A stretch of 64,000 bases of DNA, taken from IMG/VR virus record IMGVR_UViG_3300011113_000784, positions 32,001-96,000 of that record, one strand, 5' to 3'. This document shows, in pieces, positions 22,416 to 26,614 of this stretch. Both the position numbers and the translations under genes were made by a program. This DNA is from a virus. How positions within the stretch are numbered: position 1 is the first letter of the stretch; every line of letters starts with the position of its first letter. The notes beneath the pieces were generated by a model. It made no database searches. It saw nothing but the letters and a program-made list of their open reading frames with translations, and was not told the origin of the DNA.

Positions 22416-23800
22416 ATGGAAGAATTGAACAAGGAAGGAGGGCAGCACAAGCAGATGAAGATTGTTGGTTATGAACATCTTCATCTGCACTAGGTCAAAC
22501 AGAATACTCTGTCCTCGACGGTTTTGGTAGCGTTCAGGATTATATTGATAGGTGGTCACCGCATGGCGATTATCTCTGTGTAACAGATCATGGATTAATG
22601 GGTGCTATACCAAGCTTAATCACAAAAACAGAACAAGCAGAAAAGAAATTAAAAAGTTTGTACGGGTGCGAATTGTATGTGAACCCAATTCACAATGAAC
22701 CAACTGAGACTGAAGAAGCTAGAGACAAATTTATAAAAAACTTGTCACCACAAGAATTTGAAGATTTCAAAGTCTCTAGCCACATATTAGCAATTGCCGT
22801 AACCAATAAAGGTTATGAAAACCTAACAAAATTGTGTAGTCTTGGCTGGAGCCAAGGATTTTATCGTAAGCCTAGAGTCAATCACAAAGTTCTTCAACAA
22901 TATAAAGAAGGCATTGTTTTCACTTCTTGTTGTTGTGCTTCTGAAGCAGCAAGAGCTTTGCGTGTACATGGCAAAGAAGTTGCTGAAGCGACTATTCTTA
23001 AATACAAGCAAATGTTTGGAGATAACTTCTATCTTGAAATGATGCTTCTCGATTTTGAGTATCAACATGAGTATGATCAATTTTTAGTTGAGATGCACAT
23101 CAAACATCAAATTCCAATGATCATTACCAATGATGTTCATTACGCATATCAAGAGGATAGCAAGTATCAAACATTAATGATGTTGGTTAATACCAAAAGG
23201 ACATTGGCTGAGATTGAGAAGTTAAAAGCTGAGAATGCTGATGTGTTTGAATTGCAAGATAGAAATTTGTGGATGAAAACAGAGGAAGAATTGAATCAAA
23301 AGTGGGCTGAAAAGTATTCCGATGTAATTCCTTTAGAAATTTATGAACAAGCTAAAATGAATACTGTTAAGATATGCAGAATGGCATCTGGCTTAAAATT
23401 AGATAGAAGTGTAAAACTACCAAGGCTCAATGATGATGAAGGCGTTTTAAAAGATTTGGTTTTAAGAGGAATGACATATAGGGGAATATCAAAATCTAAT
23501 CGTATTTACACAAAGCGTATTGCAGAAGAATTAGATCTTATTTTTAGGAAACAGTTTGCTAGTTACTTTCTCATAGTTAAGAGTTTTACAGATGAAGCTA
23601 GAAGAAAGTGTCAAGAGATTACTGGGTTGGATGGCGTTTATGCGGTTGGACCCGGTAGAGGGTCTGGTGCTGGTTCTCTTGTGTTATATCTTCTTGGCGT
23701 TACTGATGTAGACCCAATAAAGCATGAACTTCTGTTCTCACGATTCTTATCGGAGAACAGAGGTTCACAAGCAGTATTAAAATTTAGTCAAGGTGACTGA
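22416..23800 (+). CDS. dnaE: DNA polymerase III alpha, N-terminal part (PHP domain and first palm segment); reading frame interrupted by 8 nt at 22491-22498
   Basis: 22416-22490 encodes ...YEHLHLH; 22499 onward encodes TEYSVLDG...TDHG..G...GCE...H...GY.NL...F..KPR...TNDVHY...[16 protein letters not shown].VDP....LLFSRFL. Confidence 0.88.
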
Positions 23801-24077
23801 CTTCATAGTCATCAAAGTTACTTCCTTTAGAGAAGTCAACATTTGGTGTTCCAAGATCGCCAAAAGGTTTGTCAGTATTATAACCTTTTGCACGATATGC
23901 TTGGCTCTTTTTGCCTTGTAGTGGGAAGCTATAATGCTTTCCTTTAACGCCAGTATCTTCAGGGGCTTCTGGTTGGGGGAAAGCATAAGATTTCATGATA
24001 TCTTGAAGTTTTTTCTGAGAATCGCTAATTTCTAGATCTTTTTTATATTGCTCTAAAGTCTTAATTTTCTTTGCCAT
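23784..24077 (-). CDS. hypothetical protein on the opposite strand between the dnaE halves
   Basis: GAGGTG SD with CTAAATA upstream. Confidence 0.65.
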   Translation of the reverse strand: MAKKIKTLEQYKKDLEISDSQKKLQDIMKSYAFPQPEAPEDTGVKGKHYSFPLQGKKSQAYRAKGYNTDKPFGDLGTPNVDFSKGSNFDDYEVSHLD

Positions 24078-24108
24078 GATTCACCTCTACTTTATTTAGA
24101 TTTTCACA

Positions 24109-24136
24109 TTGATTTTTACCGCTAAATGCTTAAAAT
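24109..24136 (+). promoter_or_regulatory. sigma70-type promoter of dnaE part B
   Basis: TTGATT-16 nt-TAAAAT; ATG 7 nt downstream. Confidence 0.5.
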
Positions 24137-24142
24137 CATGGT

Positions 24143-26614
24143 ATGAATACCATATCTGTCGAAGATTTTAATAAAATTATCAACAATCAATTCAAGAAAT
24201 TTCCTTTTCATGATGATCCACGATATCAATTCAGGCTTAGATATGAGCTTTTAGAAATAGAAACACAAAATTGTTGTGATTATTTTATAGATTTGGTCAA
24301 ACAAAAGAAAAAATTTCTTAATGAAAACAATTTACTTGTCCCAGTGTTACTGGGAATTTGCAATGAATTCAATATTGATGAAATGCCCAAAACTAAAACA
24401 AATGAATTCCCCGATGTTGATATCGATTTCTTGGCAGATGTTCGTGATTATCTAAAAAACGAATATGCTCCCAATCAATATAAAGCTGAAAATACATGCT
24501 CTATTGGTACTTACGGCAGATATGCTTTAAAGAGCGCCATGATTGATATGGCAAGAATCTATGGATATGACCGACAAGAAGTTTTAAATATTACAACAAA
24601 TTTGAGAATGAAAGACGAAGATGGAGATGAATTGACATATGAAGAAGCTTTAGAAATGTATCCTGAGTTGAAATCTTATATGGACAAGTATCCAGAATTA
24701 GCATTAGCTGTTCAAAAGCTTATTCACAGAGTACGCAATACCGGCAAACATGCTGGCGGTGTAATTGTTGCCAAGGACGAGATTAATAAGTTTGTTCCAT
24801 TGATGAAAACCACAGGTGGTGACCAGCTTGTATCACAGTTTGTAGAAGGTTTGGCTACACAAGAATTAGGACCAATAGGTCTGGTAAAATTCGACTTGCT
24901 TGTTGTGTCTGCGTTAGAGCAGACGGGTCACGCAGTAAAAATGATAAAGGATAGGCATAATATCAAATTAATTTCAGGTGACAATCACGATTGGGACAAC
25001 ACAGATTATTTGAATGACCCCAAGGCTATTGCGAATGCCAACGAAGCAGATTTGATTGGCATATTCCAATATGATAGCAATGGGATTAGAGAAGTTGTAA
25101 AAGCTTCTGGTATTGATAGTTTTGATGACTTGGTTGCGATTGTCAGTTTGTATCGTCCCGGTCCATTGAATGCAGAAATGGATCAAGTGTTCATCAGAAG
25201 AAAAACAGGACAAGAAGAATATACAATCAATCCCGTGCTTGAACCTGTTCTTAAATCAACTTATGGAATTATTATCTACCAAGAACAAGTAATGAGGATT
25301 CTGAATGTTGTTGGCAAAATCCCTCTGAAAGATTGCGAAACAATCAGAAAGGCTATTTCTAAAAAGAAGATATCAAGTTTCATCAAGTATAAAGAACAAT
25401 TCATTGAAAACGGTGTTAATGTTCTTGGAATTTCCAGAGAAGAAGTCGCTGATATATTTCAGAATATTGAATTCTTCTCAGCTTATGGTTTTAACTTAAG
25501 TCATGCCACCGCTTATACTTACATCAGCAGCCGACAATTATATTTGAAAACTTATTATCCATTAGAATTCTTTACTGCTTTGTTGATGTTGGAAGGTAGT
25601 GAAGAGAAGAAGCGCATTTATATTACAGATGCTCAAAATCATGGAATTGAAGTTCGGGCAGTTGACCTAAACACAAGCAAAGCCAATTTCTCGATACAAG
25701 ATAATGCCATTTACATTGGTTTTGGCAATATTAAAGGTATCGGAATGGATACTGCCAATAAGATTGTAGCCTTGCAACCGTTTAAAGACATAGATGATTT
25801 TCTTCGTCGGTTTGGCACAGACTCTAGTGTTTTGAAAGCACTGATTCCGTTGAAGGTCTTTGGAGAAGACACAAAGAGAGCTTACAACTATTGGCAAGCT
25901 TTTATGGCTAAGAACAAAAAGGTTGTTGACAAAAATAAGAGATCTAATAAGTCTTATCTCGATCTGAAGAAGACAGTGTTATATCTGTTGCCTGAAAAGT
26001 ATAGGAATTTGGAATTGTCTGAAGAATTGTTTTCAATTCTTAAATCAATTAATGATTCTGCTGATGTGAACAAGCTGCATAAGAAATGGGTGAGGATGAA
26101 TTCTAAAGAAGAAGCAAAGATTGAAATTTCTTATGAAGACTTTGATGATGATGACATTGTCATCGAAGATAAAGAGTTGCTGCTTGAATTAAATGATATT
26201 TGTGTGGCTGAGAGAAAGTATTATGGGTTTCAGTTTACTTGCAGACTAAGAATGCTAAAGATGTACAGTGAGAACTGTACATTTGACCGTGTTATTAATT
26301 CTCATGCCTTGGGTGCGACTAAGCACATGGTTCAAATTGAAATATTGGATGTCAATAAAAGATATTCAAAATCTGGTAAGCCCTATTGCCAGTTAGTTGC
26401 TATGGATAGTAATTTCAGAATTGAGAGGATTAATGTGTGGGAAGATGATTACGCTATATTCAAACATTTGCTTGAGGTTAACAAATGTTTGTCAATGCAG
26501 GTCAAACCACCTTCTAATGGATTTTCTACTTATAGCCTAAATTCTCCTCCTAAAAACAGGAGATATTTACTTCCATCATCAGAGATGGATTTCAGAATTG
26601 TTTTAATGGACTAG
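24143..26614 (+). CDS. dnaE: DNA polymerase III alpha, C-terminal part (catalytic palm, thumb, fingers, HhH, OB)
   Basis: PDVDIDF, GKHAGG, GLVKFDLL, GIFQ, LYRPGP, TYGIIIYQEQVM, YGFNLSHATAY, IKGIG. Confidence 0.93.
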   Translation: MNTISVEDFNKIINNQFKKFPFHDDPRYQFRLRYELLEIETQNCCDYFIDLVKQKKKFLNENNLLVPVLLGICNEFNIDEMPKTKTNEFPDVDIDFLADVRDYLKNEYAPNQYKAENTCSIGTYGRYALKSAMIDMARIYGYDRQEVLNITTNLRMKDEDGDELTYEEALEMYPELKSYMDKYPELALAVQKLIHRVRNTGKHAGGVIVAKDEINKFVPLMKTTGGDQLVSQFVEGLATQELGPIGLVKFDLLVVSALEQTGHAVKMIKDRHNIKLISGDNHDWDNTDYLNDPKAIANANEADLIGIFQYDSNGIREVVKASGIDSFDDLVAIVSLYRPGPLNAEMDQVFIRRKTGQEEYTINPVLEPVLKSTYGIIIYQEQVMRILNVVGKIPLKDCETIRKAISKKKISSFIKYKEQFIENGVNVLGISREEVADIFQNIEFFSAYGFNLSHATAYTYISSRQLYLKTYYPLEFFTALLMLEGSEEKKRIYITDAQNHGIEVRAVDLNTSKANFSIQDNAIYIGFGNIKGIGMDTANKIVALQPFKDIDDFLRRFGTDSSVLKALIPLKVFGEDTKRAYNYWQAFMAKNKKVVDKNKRSNKSYLDLKKTVLYLLPEKYRNLELSEELFSILKSINDSADVNKLHKKWVRMNSKEEAKIEISYEDFDDDDIVIEDKELLLELNDICVAERKYYGFQFTCRLRMLKMYSENCTFDRVINSHALGATKHMVQIEILDVNKRYSKSGKPYCQLVAMDSNFRIERINVWEDDYAIFKHLLEVNKCLSMQVKPPSNGFSTYSLNSPPKNRRYLLPSSEMDFRIVLMD

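Follow-up and report, generated by a model that had tools for sequence, protein, structure and literature searches.

The DNA described here is a 64,000-nucleotide (nt) stretch of a virus, positions 32,001 to 96,000 of IMG/VR record IMGVR_UViG_3300011113_000784, and this whole stretch is referred to below as the window. Its source record comprises 110,967 bp and is about 23% complete as estimated by CheckV, indicating that the window is a fragment of a huge phage. On the plus strand of the window lie two DnaE-related genes, here called A and B, whose coordinates and features are given in Table 1. We found that A and B are a real and very widespread two-gene DnaE, i.e. a C-family DNA polymerase (Pol III alpha) encoded in two pieces, and that the two proteins most likely function as an obligate heterodimer.

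A first-pass annotation, made from the sequence without database searches, had described a DnaE cut through the palm into two genes. This was borne out by Pfam analysis, in which the 260-position DNA_pol3_alpha profile (PF07733) was divided between the two proteins, positions 3–100 matching A and positions 98–259 matching B. The stop codon of A (TGA, 23798–23800) is located 12 codons past the FSRFLSENR motif. The PHP domain and the entire polymerase core do not reside on one polypeptide; they are encoded by two genes with a 342-nt gap and an antisense gene between them. The elements of a DnaE-type palm were present only when both proteins were considered jointly, as GRGS is in A and the aspartates D91, D93 and D251 are in B, where NEFPDVDIDF constitutes residues 87–96 and VKFD residues 248–251. 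The assignment of PDVDIDF and KFD, with all three catalytic aspartates, to B was likewise upheld: D91, D93, D95, K249 and D251 were invariant in an alignment of 50 B proteins, none of which contained the GS motif. In an alignment of 68 A proteins, G384, R387, G388, S389, R415 and R421 of A were invariant, as were the PHP metal-ligand positions D7, H31, E58, H95, C145, D212 and H214. The PHP ligand positions are all present, as in the proofreading-competent PHP domains of the Mycobacterium tuberculosis and Thermus aquaticus enzymes.

The nearest contiguous relative in the phage collection was LR756511.1, a 595-kb uncultured phage with a single open reading frame (ORF) of 1179 residues. In this ORF, the equivalent of A residue 429 directly abuts the equivalent of B residue 88 (..FSRFLSKFRKDYPDVDVDF..), forming the canonical junction and confirming that the motifs on either side of the break are contiguous in single-chain DnaE. 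The contiguous relatives are 48–50% identical to A and to B. Compared with a single-chain enzyme, the window has approximately 640 nt extra at the junction, consisting of the 12-codon tail of A, the 342-nt spacer, and the first ~85 codons of B.

The two genes could also represent a division of labour, with A acting as a free-standing PHP 3'–5' exonuclease in proofreading or repair and B being a self-sufficient polymerase whose remodelled head has replaced the dNTP-binding elements. Such an arrangement would fit with the conservation and selection of the B head, and with the finding that as much as 15 kb, containing unrelated genes, can separate A from B. The AlphaFold2 model of B alone was also confident (mean predicted local distance difference test score, pLDDT, 88.8; N-terminal blocks 76–92), which is in favour of B folding on its own. 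However, the GS motif and the equivalents of the two arginines were absent from the B head in 50 of 50 relatives, whereas A, which has no catalytic aspartates, retains GRGS, R415 and R421 without exception in the 68 sequences, residues for which a PHP nuclease has no function. Moreover, the contiguous relatives couple the A motifs directly to the Asp strand of B, and the model of the complex described below places the A GRGS loop on that strand. We therefore regard this proposal of the first-pass annotation as disfavoured and unlikely. Known structures of Pol III alpha show contacts of the GS motif and the arginine residues with the triphosphate of the incoming dNTP. A free PHP nuclease would not need these residues, yet A has kept them and B has lost them, which speaks for an active site formed in trans by the two proteins.

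The modelling of A together with B that had been proposed earlier was carried out with the 433 residues of A and residues 1–560 of B as input, with alignments. The predicted complex reached interface scores (ipSAE) of 0.84, 0.86 and 0.83, whereas the best of three controls scored 0.00; 58 of 80 solved complexes attain the ipSAE mark applied, as do 2 of 110 mismatched pairs. At least 88% of the contacts were common to the runs, and the partner pLDDT was at least 85. In the modelled interface, residues 353–430 of A (the GRGS loop, FSRF and the tail) face residues 34–64 (the head), 82–113 (the Asp strand and the next helix) and 189–266 of B, with the GRGS loop of A against the Asp strand. The model supports a likeness of the predicted assembly to DnaE, rather than binding as such. 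The model of B also resembled the T. aquaticus, Escherichia coli and M. tuberculosis DnaE structures (VIA-align, Z ~21) from residue ~84 onward. For the first 85 residues of B, the start of the aligned range was inconsistent among Protein Data Bank entries (mostly ~84, in a few cases 2, 54 or 80).

The suggested survey of related phages for the same split point was also made. A scan of IMG/VR with the B query revealed five further contigs, with A and B separate in all of them, and a scan with the A alignment yielded 80 loci, i.e. 81 including the window. A stand-alone A ending just past the tail motif was found in 77 of these 81 loci, and a contiguous form in the remaining four. B was located downstream on the same strand in 42 loci, at distances of up to 9,580 nt, the smallest being the 342 nt of the window, and in four genomes without B inside 10 kb it was found 11.5–15 kb downstream. 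Wherever a genome allowed both genes to be looked for, A and B occurred together on the same strand. Among 1.84 billion representative proteins, 92 of the best 150 matches were built like B, with GRGS absent and PDxDxD at residue ~85; as these counts refer to clusters at 50% identity, there are at least 92 clusters with this architecture. The A query matched 2,673 clusters at E ≤ 1e-20 in a word-indexed search, and the best 120 of them were all 400–480 residues long. The split is thus not a feature of one phage, as the first-pass annotation had presented it, but characterizes a very large radiation of phages. A complete 527-kb relative (G006) contains exactly one A-part and one B-part and, in addition, only a small PolA-like gene. 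A family-B polymerase (PF00136) was not matched in the complete genomes of G006 and G007 or in LR756511.1, nor in the 111-kb record of the window, which is ~23% complete. As G006 has one A, one B and no family-B polymerase, the split enzyme is by inference the replicase. In another complete relative, a 355-kb record with terminal repeats (G013), the DNA_pol3_alpha profile at 298–305 kb was spread over three open frames (positions 3–68, 52–99 and 99–260) in ~6 kb, pointing to additional fragmentation or to insertions.

An assembly artefact or a decaying pseudogene could in principle give rise to a similar picture, and the interruption of the gene A frame near its 5' end might be taken as a sign of this. 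The same layout was, however, present in more than 80 independent contigs, and the stretch is covered by contigs of a 2018 viral metagenome and of an unrelated 2025 soil study. The contig of the soil study is near-identical and keeps the split, differing from the window solely by ~84 extra bases at 23785–23788; this insertion falls exactly at the stop codon of A and the end of the antisense gene. To assess selection, we used the proportions of nonsynonymous (pN) and synonymous (pS) differences. Every part of A and B, including residues 1–85 of B, was under purifying selection, with pN 0.07–0.13 compared with pS ~0.7. This also applies to the region 3' of the frame break in A, where many synonymous changes between the window and its close relative L004 indicate that the region is translated. 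As A and B are in addition the only C-family polymerase in a complete genome, we consider an artefact or a pseudogene extremely improbable.

The frame break itself, which the first-pass annotation had not noted, is located near the start of A. The start at 22416 given in the first-pass annotation is outside the main frame: the ATG codons at 22416 and 22461 share a frame that ends at TAG 22491, and the main frame, which carries TEYSVLDG, runs from 22499 with 22598 as its earliest start codon. The start of the gene was instead placed by homology to relatives in which the frame is uninterrupted (L005, MHMNIVGFEHLHLH; P0153, MKIVGFEHLHLH). The HxH pair of the PHP domain is present in A, but in the upstream frame beyond the 8-nt break. 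The canonical spacing from HLHLH to LDG is 15 nt, and in the 80 loci inserts alter it at exactly the site corresponding to 22488–22501 of the window (at about 9990–10010 in loci L016–L095). The inserts were of several kinds, i.e. +8 nt (TAG plus 5), +7 nt (TAG plus 4), +5 nt, +6 nt with an in-frame stop, and long inserts of 40–47 nt that form GC-rich hairpins with a stop codon in the loop. Twenty-six of the 74 loci in which HxHxH was found are frame-shifted, and others show in-frame stops. The short inserts mostly begin with TAG, and most of them end in a NAY triplet, which is near-cognate to CAY, the His codon from which take-off would occur. The stop-containing inserts after HLHLH look like candidates for recurrent programmed translational bypassing of the kind known from T4 gene 60. 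The 8-nt interruption was also present in the near-identical contig from the independent soil metagenome. The break is hence a conserved feature and does not mark A as a pseudogene. Gene calls of 400 residues for A omit the true N-terminus.

Another possibility considered was that A and B are linked post-transcriptionally or post-translationally, by an unrecognized split intein, by trans-splicing or by a cis intron. Many relatives of B carry inteins, though elsewhere, at about B residue 453 (GFNLSH), and in two contiguous relatives (P0036 and P0093) an intein is inserted inside GPGRG/S (..VHN/S..). In line with this, many B homologues (P0004, P0005, P0012, P0017 and others) are 1200–1340 residues long with intein-sized inserts near residue 453. 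Judging from the two sites, inteins do enter this family, though at places other than the A/B break. Neither A nor B matched a Hint or intein family in Pfam, which agrees with the earlier description of the split as intein-free. The A tail is 12 residues with a conserved non-intein motif, the B head is DnaE-like and homologous to DnaE helices, and His-Asn followed by Cys, Ser or Thr does not occur before the FPDVDIDF strand. At the RNA level, no group I or II intron or ribozyme was matched in Rfam at E values up to 5 within 22000–27000. A 264-nt contig from a metatranscriptome library was colinear across the A stop codon, which cannot show strand or expression, and no joint linking A and B was seen in the DNA or RNA contigs covering the stretch. 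The gap between A and B contains a selected antisense gene, and the intervening DNA is wholly different among relatives, amounting to as much as 15 kb of unrelated genes. These kilobases of unrelated, partly antisense genes speak against an intron and make cis-splicing hardly feasible in practice, and joining by any of the three routes appears very improbable.

Both proteins contain extra residues at the break. In 120 of 120 A proteins, FSRFLS is followed by x-x-R-G and then mostly by G-(K/R)-x-[IML]-K-L-(R/K/E)-F, the R and G of this tail motif being invariant (120/120) and the F present in 104/120. When the tail was compared with the contiguous sequence ..AR-KDYPDVDVDF, the hydrophobic positions coincided, and the three Asp positions were occupied by Q/S, K and R/K/E. 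Judged from sequence, the A tail may thus be a vestige of the PDxDxDF catalytic strand in which the acidic positions have been replaced.

The first ~85 residues of B had been described as a decayed second copy of the preceding segment that lacks GRGS and FxRF. The copy, with its missing motifs, was confirmed in several ways. In a MAFFT alignment, B residues ~5–85 were colinear with the DnaE segment before the Asp strand (Y..RL..EL..I......YF.....(gap)..NLLV..LLGI), with two deletions common to all B proteins, one of ~17 residues including GPGRGS and one of 6 residues including FSRFL. Profile–profile comparison of six B heads with six A C-termini (hhalign) gave a probability of 87% and an E value of 3.9e-6. 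When B was compared with single-chain phage DnaEs by tblastn, the alignments started at B residue 6–28; in Rhizobium phage V1VFA-S, the alignment starts 310 residues into a 1122-residue gene. In some relatives, the Pfam profile matched B from position 5, 19 or 21 to position 260, overlapping the positions of A. The decay, in contrast, was not upheld. The B head had pN 0.069 and pS 0.74, compared with 0.073 and 0.69 for the catalytic core (window versus L004), and it carries the family-wide motif N(E/Q)NNLLxPxLLGI. The head is under purifying selection as strong as that on the catalytic core and is not decaying. Six B-type proteins of a sister group (P0097, P0113, P0115, P0119, P0136 and P0138) have an insert of 100–180 residues, of unknown fold, between the vestigial head and PDxDxDF.

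Several points weigh against an obligate heterodimer formed in the way proposed here. Structures of single-chain DnaE have been solved, and the score of the modelled complex may therefore only reflect resemblance to them. The functional helices of A and their vestigial copy in B cannot both fill the canonical place. As the frame is broken after HLHLH, A either needs a recoding event or lacks two PHP metal ligands. Finally, the homology between the A tail and the Asp strand is supported by the residue pattern alone. On the other side are the complementary invariant motifs, the co-occurrence of A and B, the canonical junction in the contiguous relatives, and the complex model, by which the heterodimer with its active site in trans, one of the two possibilities raised by the first-pass annotation, is well supported. 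The anatomy of the two genes, their conservation, selection and co-occurrence, the lack of intein and intron signals, and the phylogenetic placement are directly shown by the sequences. Taken together, we find it highly probable that the C-family replicative polymerase of the phage is an obligate two-subunit enzyme, and we infer that A and B bind physically, act in trans, and dock through the remnants at the break.

In the mechanism that we propose, subunit A would contribute PHP for proofreading and that half of the Pol-beta-like palm which binds dNTP (GRGS and the arginines of FSRFLSxxR), and subunit B would contribute the three catalytic aspartates together with the thumb, fingers, helix-hairpin-helix (HhH) and oligonucleotide-binding (OB) domains. 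The active site would be built across the A–B interface with the geometry of single-chain DnaE, and neither protein splicing nor RNA splicing would take part. One ancestral dnaE would have become two genes through a duplication overlapping the break point, followed by complementary loss, so that the last helices of A are retained in remodelled form in B, and the Asp strand in remodelled form in A. The overlap remnants, now under selection, may serve to dock the two halves onto each other.

Partial duplication and complementary loss would be expected to leave such an overlap on either side of the break, and the sequences thus suggest that A and B originated by gene fission through an overlapping duplication. 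In IQ-TREE phylogenies of the B core and of the A half, the contiguous forms LR756511.1, P0035, P0036, P0049 and P0093 were one clade inside the split forms. A constraint placing all main-clade split forms in one group, with the contiguous forms merely as its sister, gave p = 0.0565 in the approximately unbiased (AU) test with a log-likelihood difference of 39 for the B core, and p = 0.50 for the A half; these tests are indecisive because the attachment point of the outgroup is uncertain. The lineages just outside the main clade are B-type too. Separate A and B genes were verified in two genomes, one of them complete, of the B-type outgroup lineage P0116, the only such lineage verified at the genome level. 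A tree uniting all these B-type sequences without the contiguous clade was rejected (log-likelihood difference 186, AU p = 2.5e-31), the group having been named after the tree was seen. A second contiguous pair, P0124 and P0130, was nested among other B-type forms, and the 110-sequence tree requires a minimum of five state changes. The position of the LR756511 clade inside the split radiation means that it is probably the result of re-fusion. If the root lies among cellular-type single-chain DnaEs, the simplest scenario is one old fission and a later re-fusion in the LR756511 clade; several independent fissions might also have occurred, but would have had to converge on the same deletions and the same N-rich motif. 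For the full scenario, in which a full-size DnaE was split once, early in the large radiation of these mostly huge phages, by overlapping duplication, the remnants became the heterodimer interface, and at least the LR756511 clade re-fused, regaining the canonical junction, we see about an even chance.

Table 1. Coordinates of the split DnaE and of the features around it in the window.
Feature	Position	Strand	Details
N-terminal mini-frame of gene A	22461..22490	+	MKIVGYEHLHLH = PHP motif I (HxHxH); preceded by AAGGAAGGAGGG
8-nt interruption TAGGTCAA	22491..22498	+	between HLHLH and TEYSVLDG; stop codon first, frame shifted
Gene A, main frame	22499..23800	+	433 codons and stop; PHP domain, then N-terminal half of palm
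PHP domain, exonuclease-type	22499..23044	+	Pfam PF02811, E 5.9e-28
Palm N-part	23447..23767	+	Pfam DNA_pol3_alpha profile 3–100
GRGS	23654–23665	+	bases AGA GGG TCT at 23657
FSRFLSENR	23735–23761	+	68-row alignment
A C-terminal tail and stop	23762..23800	+	family motif xAR-GG-(K/R)-x-[IML]-K-L-(R/K/E)-F
Conserved antisense 97-residue gene	23784..24077	-	ribosome-binding site GAGGTG; overlaps last 17 nt of A tail-to-tail
Promoter-like TTGATT-16-TAAAAT	24109..24136	+	ends 6 nt before B ATG
Gene B	24143..26614	+	823 residues: vestigial helical head, catalytic palm, thumb, fingers, HhH, OB
B residues 1–85	24143..24397	+	rearranged second copy of A palm helices, without GPGRGS and FSRFL; carries NENNLLVPVLLGI
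FPDVDIDF strand, catalytic D91 and D93 (and D95)	24407..24430	+	invariant columns; contacts A GRGS loop in model
K249-F-D251, third catalytic Asp	24887..24895	+	invariant columns
Fingers domain	24929..25414	+	Pfam PF17657, E 1.2e-40
HhH domain	25643..25852	+	Pfam PF14579, E 1e-14
C-terminal OB fold	26258..26611	+	AlphaFold2 model; VIA-align Z 9–10 to OB-fold single-stranded DNA binders

The antisense ORF in the spacer had pN 0.045–0.115 and pS 0.72–0.78 in the two closest relatives, indicating that it is a real gene. It matched no Pfam or PHROG family, the Atlas scores of 0.75–0.76 were too low to use, and homologues were found only in the two contigs closest to the window. The spacer of these two relatives also holds large, unrelated minus-strand repeat proteins of 553 and 455 residues. 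The first-pass annotation had assigned a promoter to each half. A generic scan for promoters and terminators gave no more sites than in shuffled sequence, but the box before B (TTGATT-16/17-TAAAAT-6 nt-ATG) is fully conserved among the window, L004 and L005, in a spacer that otherwise varies. This pattern, which is one of sequence only, suggests a dedicated B promoter that may give a leaderless mRNA. Just upstream of A, at 16305–21184, the window contains a prkA-yeaH-spoVR-like trio; a SpoVR-like gene also precedes A in G003 (locus L013), indicating a conserved neighbourhood.

Compared with known systems, A and B taken together have the same domain order (PHP, palm, thumb, fingers, HhH and OB) as single-chain DnaE/Pol III alpha from E. 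coli (2HNH), T. aquaticus (2HPI/3E0D) and M. tuberculosis (DnaE1, 5LEW/7PU7), and share its catalytic motifs. Unlike in these enzymes, the chain is interrupted within the Pol-beta-like palm, after the GS motif and ahead of the DxD strand, and each piece keeps a remnant of the flank of the other. In the group 2.2 jumbo phages, Iyer et al. (2021, PMC7824862) describe a minimal Pol III alpha made up of an N-terminal NTP-binding protein and a C-terminal protein that binds Mg2+ and DNA, the genes of which are distant from each other; this module has neither PHP nor the remaining Pol III domains and occurs alongside a family-B replicase. As far as the descriptions can be compared, that module has the same topological break point as A/B and is likewise intein-free and found in large phages. 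It is set apart, again by description, by the full size of A/B, with PHP, fingers, HhH and OB domains, by the overlap remnants in both halves, and by the lack of any family-B polymerase match in the complete A/B relatives mentioned above.

In cyanobacterial DnaE, the break is located just before the CFNKSH motif in the fingers region. The cyanobacterial dnaE is encoded by two distant genes, and the halves are covalently joined by protein trans-splicing via a split DnaE intein (Caspi et al. 2003, cited in PMC3919608). A/B, in contrast, has no intein and is broken in the palm, and it is the inteins of the B relatives that are located at about the cyanobacterial site. Family-B polymerases encoded by two genes, intein-free and thought to assemble, are known from T4-related Aeromonas phages (43A/43B) and Methanothermobacter (PolB). 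These belong to another family and fold, and the split in the T4-related phages is associated with a mobile insertion. The divided dnaE genes mentioned in surveys of bacterial C-family polymerases are limited to intein-split and frameshift-fragmented ones, and no published description of a full-size split DnaE was found in the literature searched, the coverage of which was incomplete.

Bacteria replicate their DNA with C-family polymerases, which are regarded as single catalytic chains, whereas A/B puts the dNTP-binding and metal-binding halves on separate polypeptides. For annotation, this means that thousands of metagenomic entries named ‘DNA polymerase III alpha’ or ‘PHP domain protein’ each represent half of a single enzyme. 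If the proposed history is true, A/B would clearly exemplify gene fission through duplication and complementary degeneration, probably followed by re-fusion, and the re-fusion would be a natural experiment indicating that the split enzyme keeps the single-chain geometry. A/B may thus serve as a ready-made system for studying the assembly and regulation of the palm, for example the control of activity through the separate supply of A or B.

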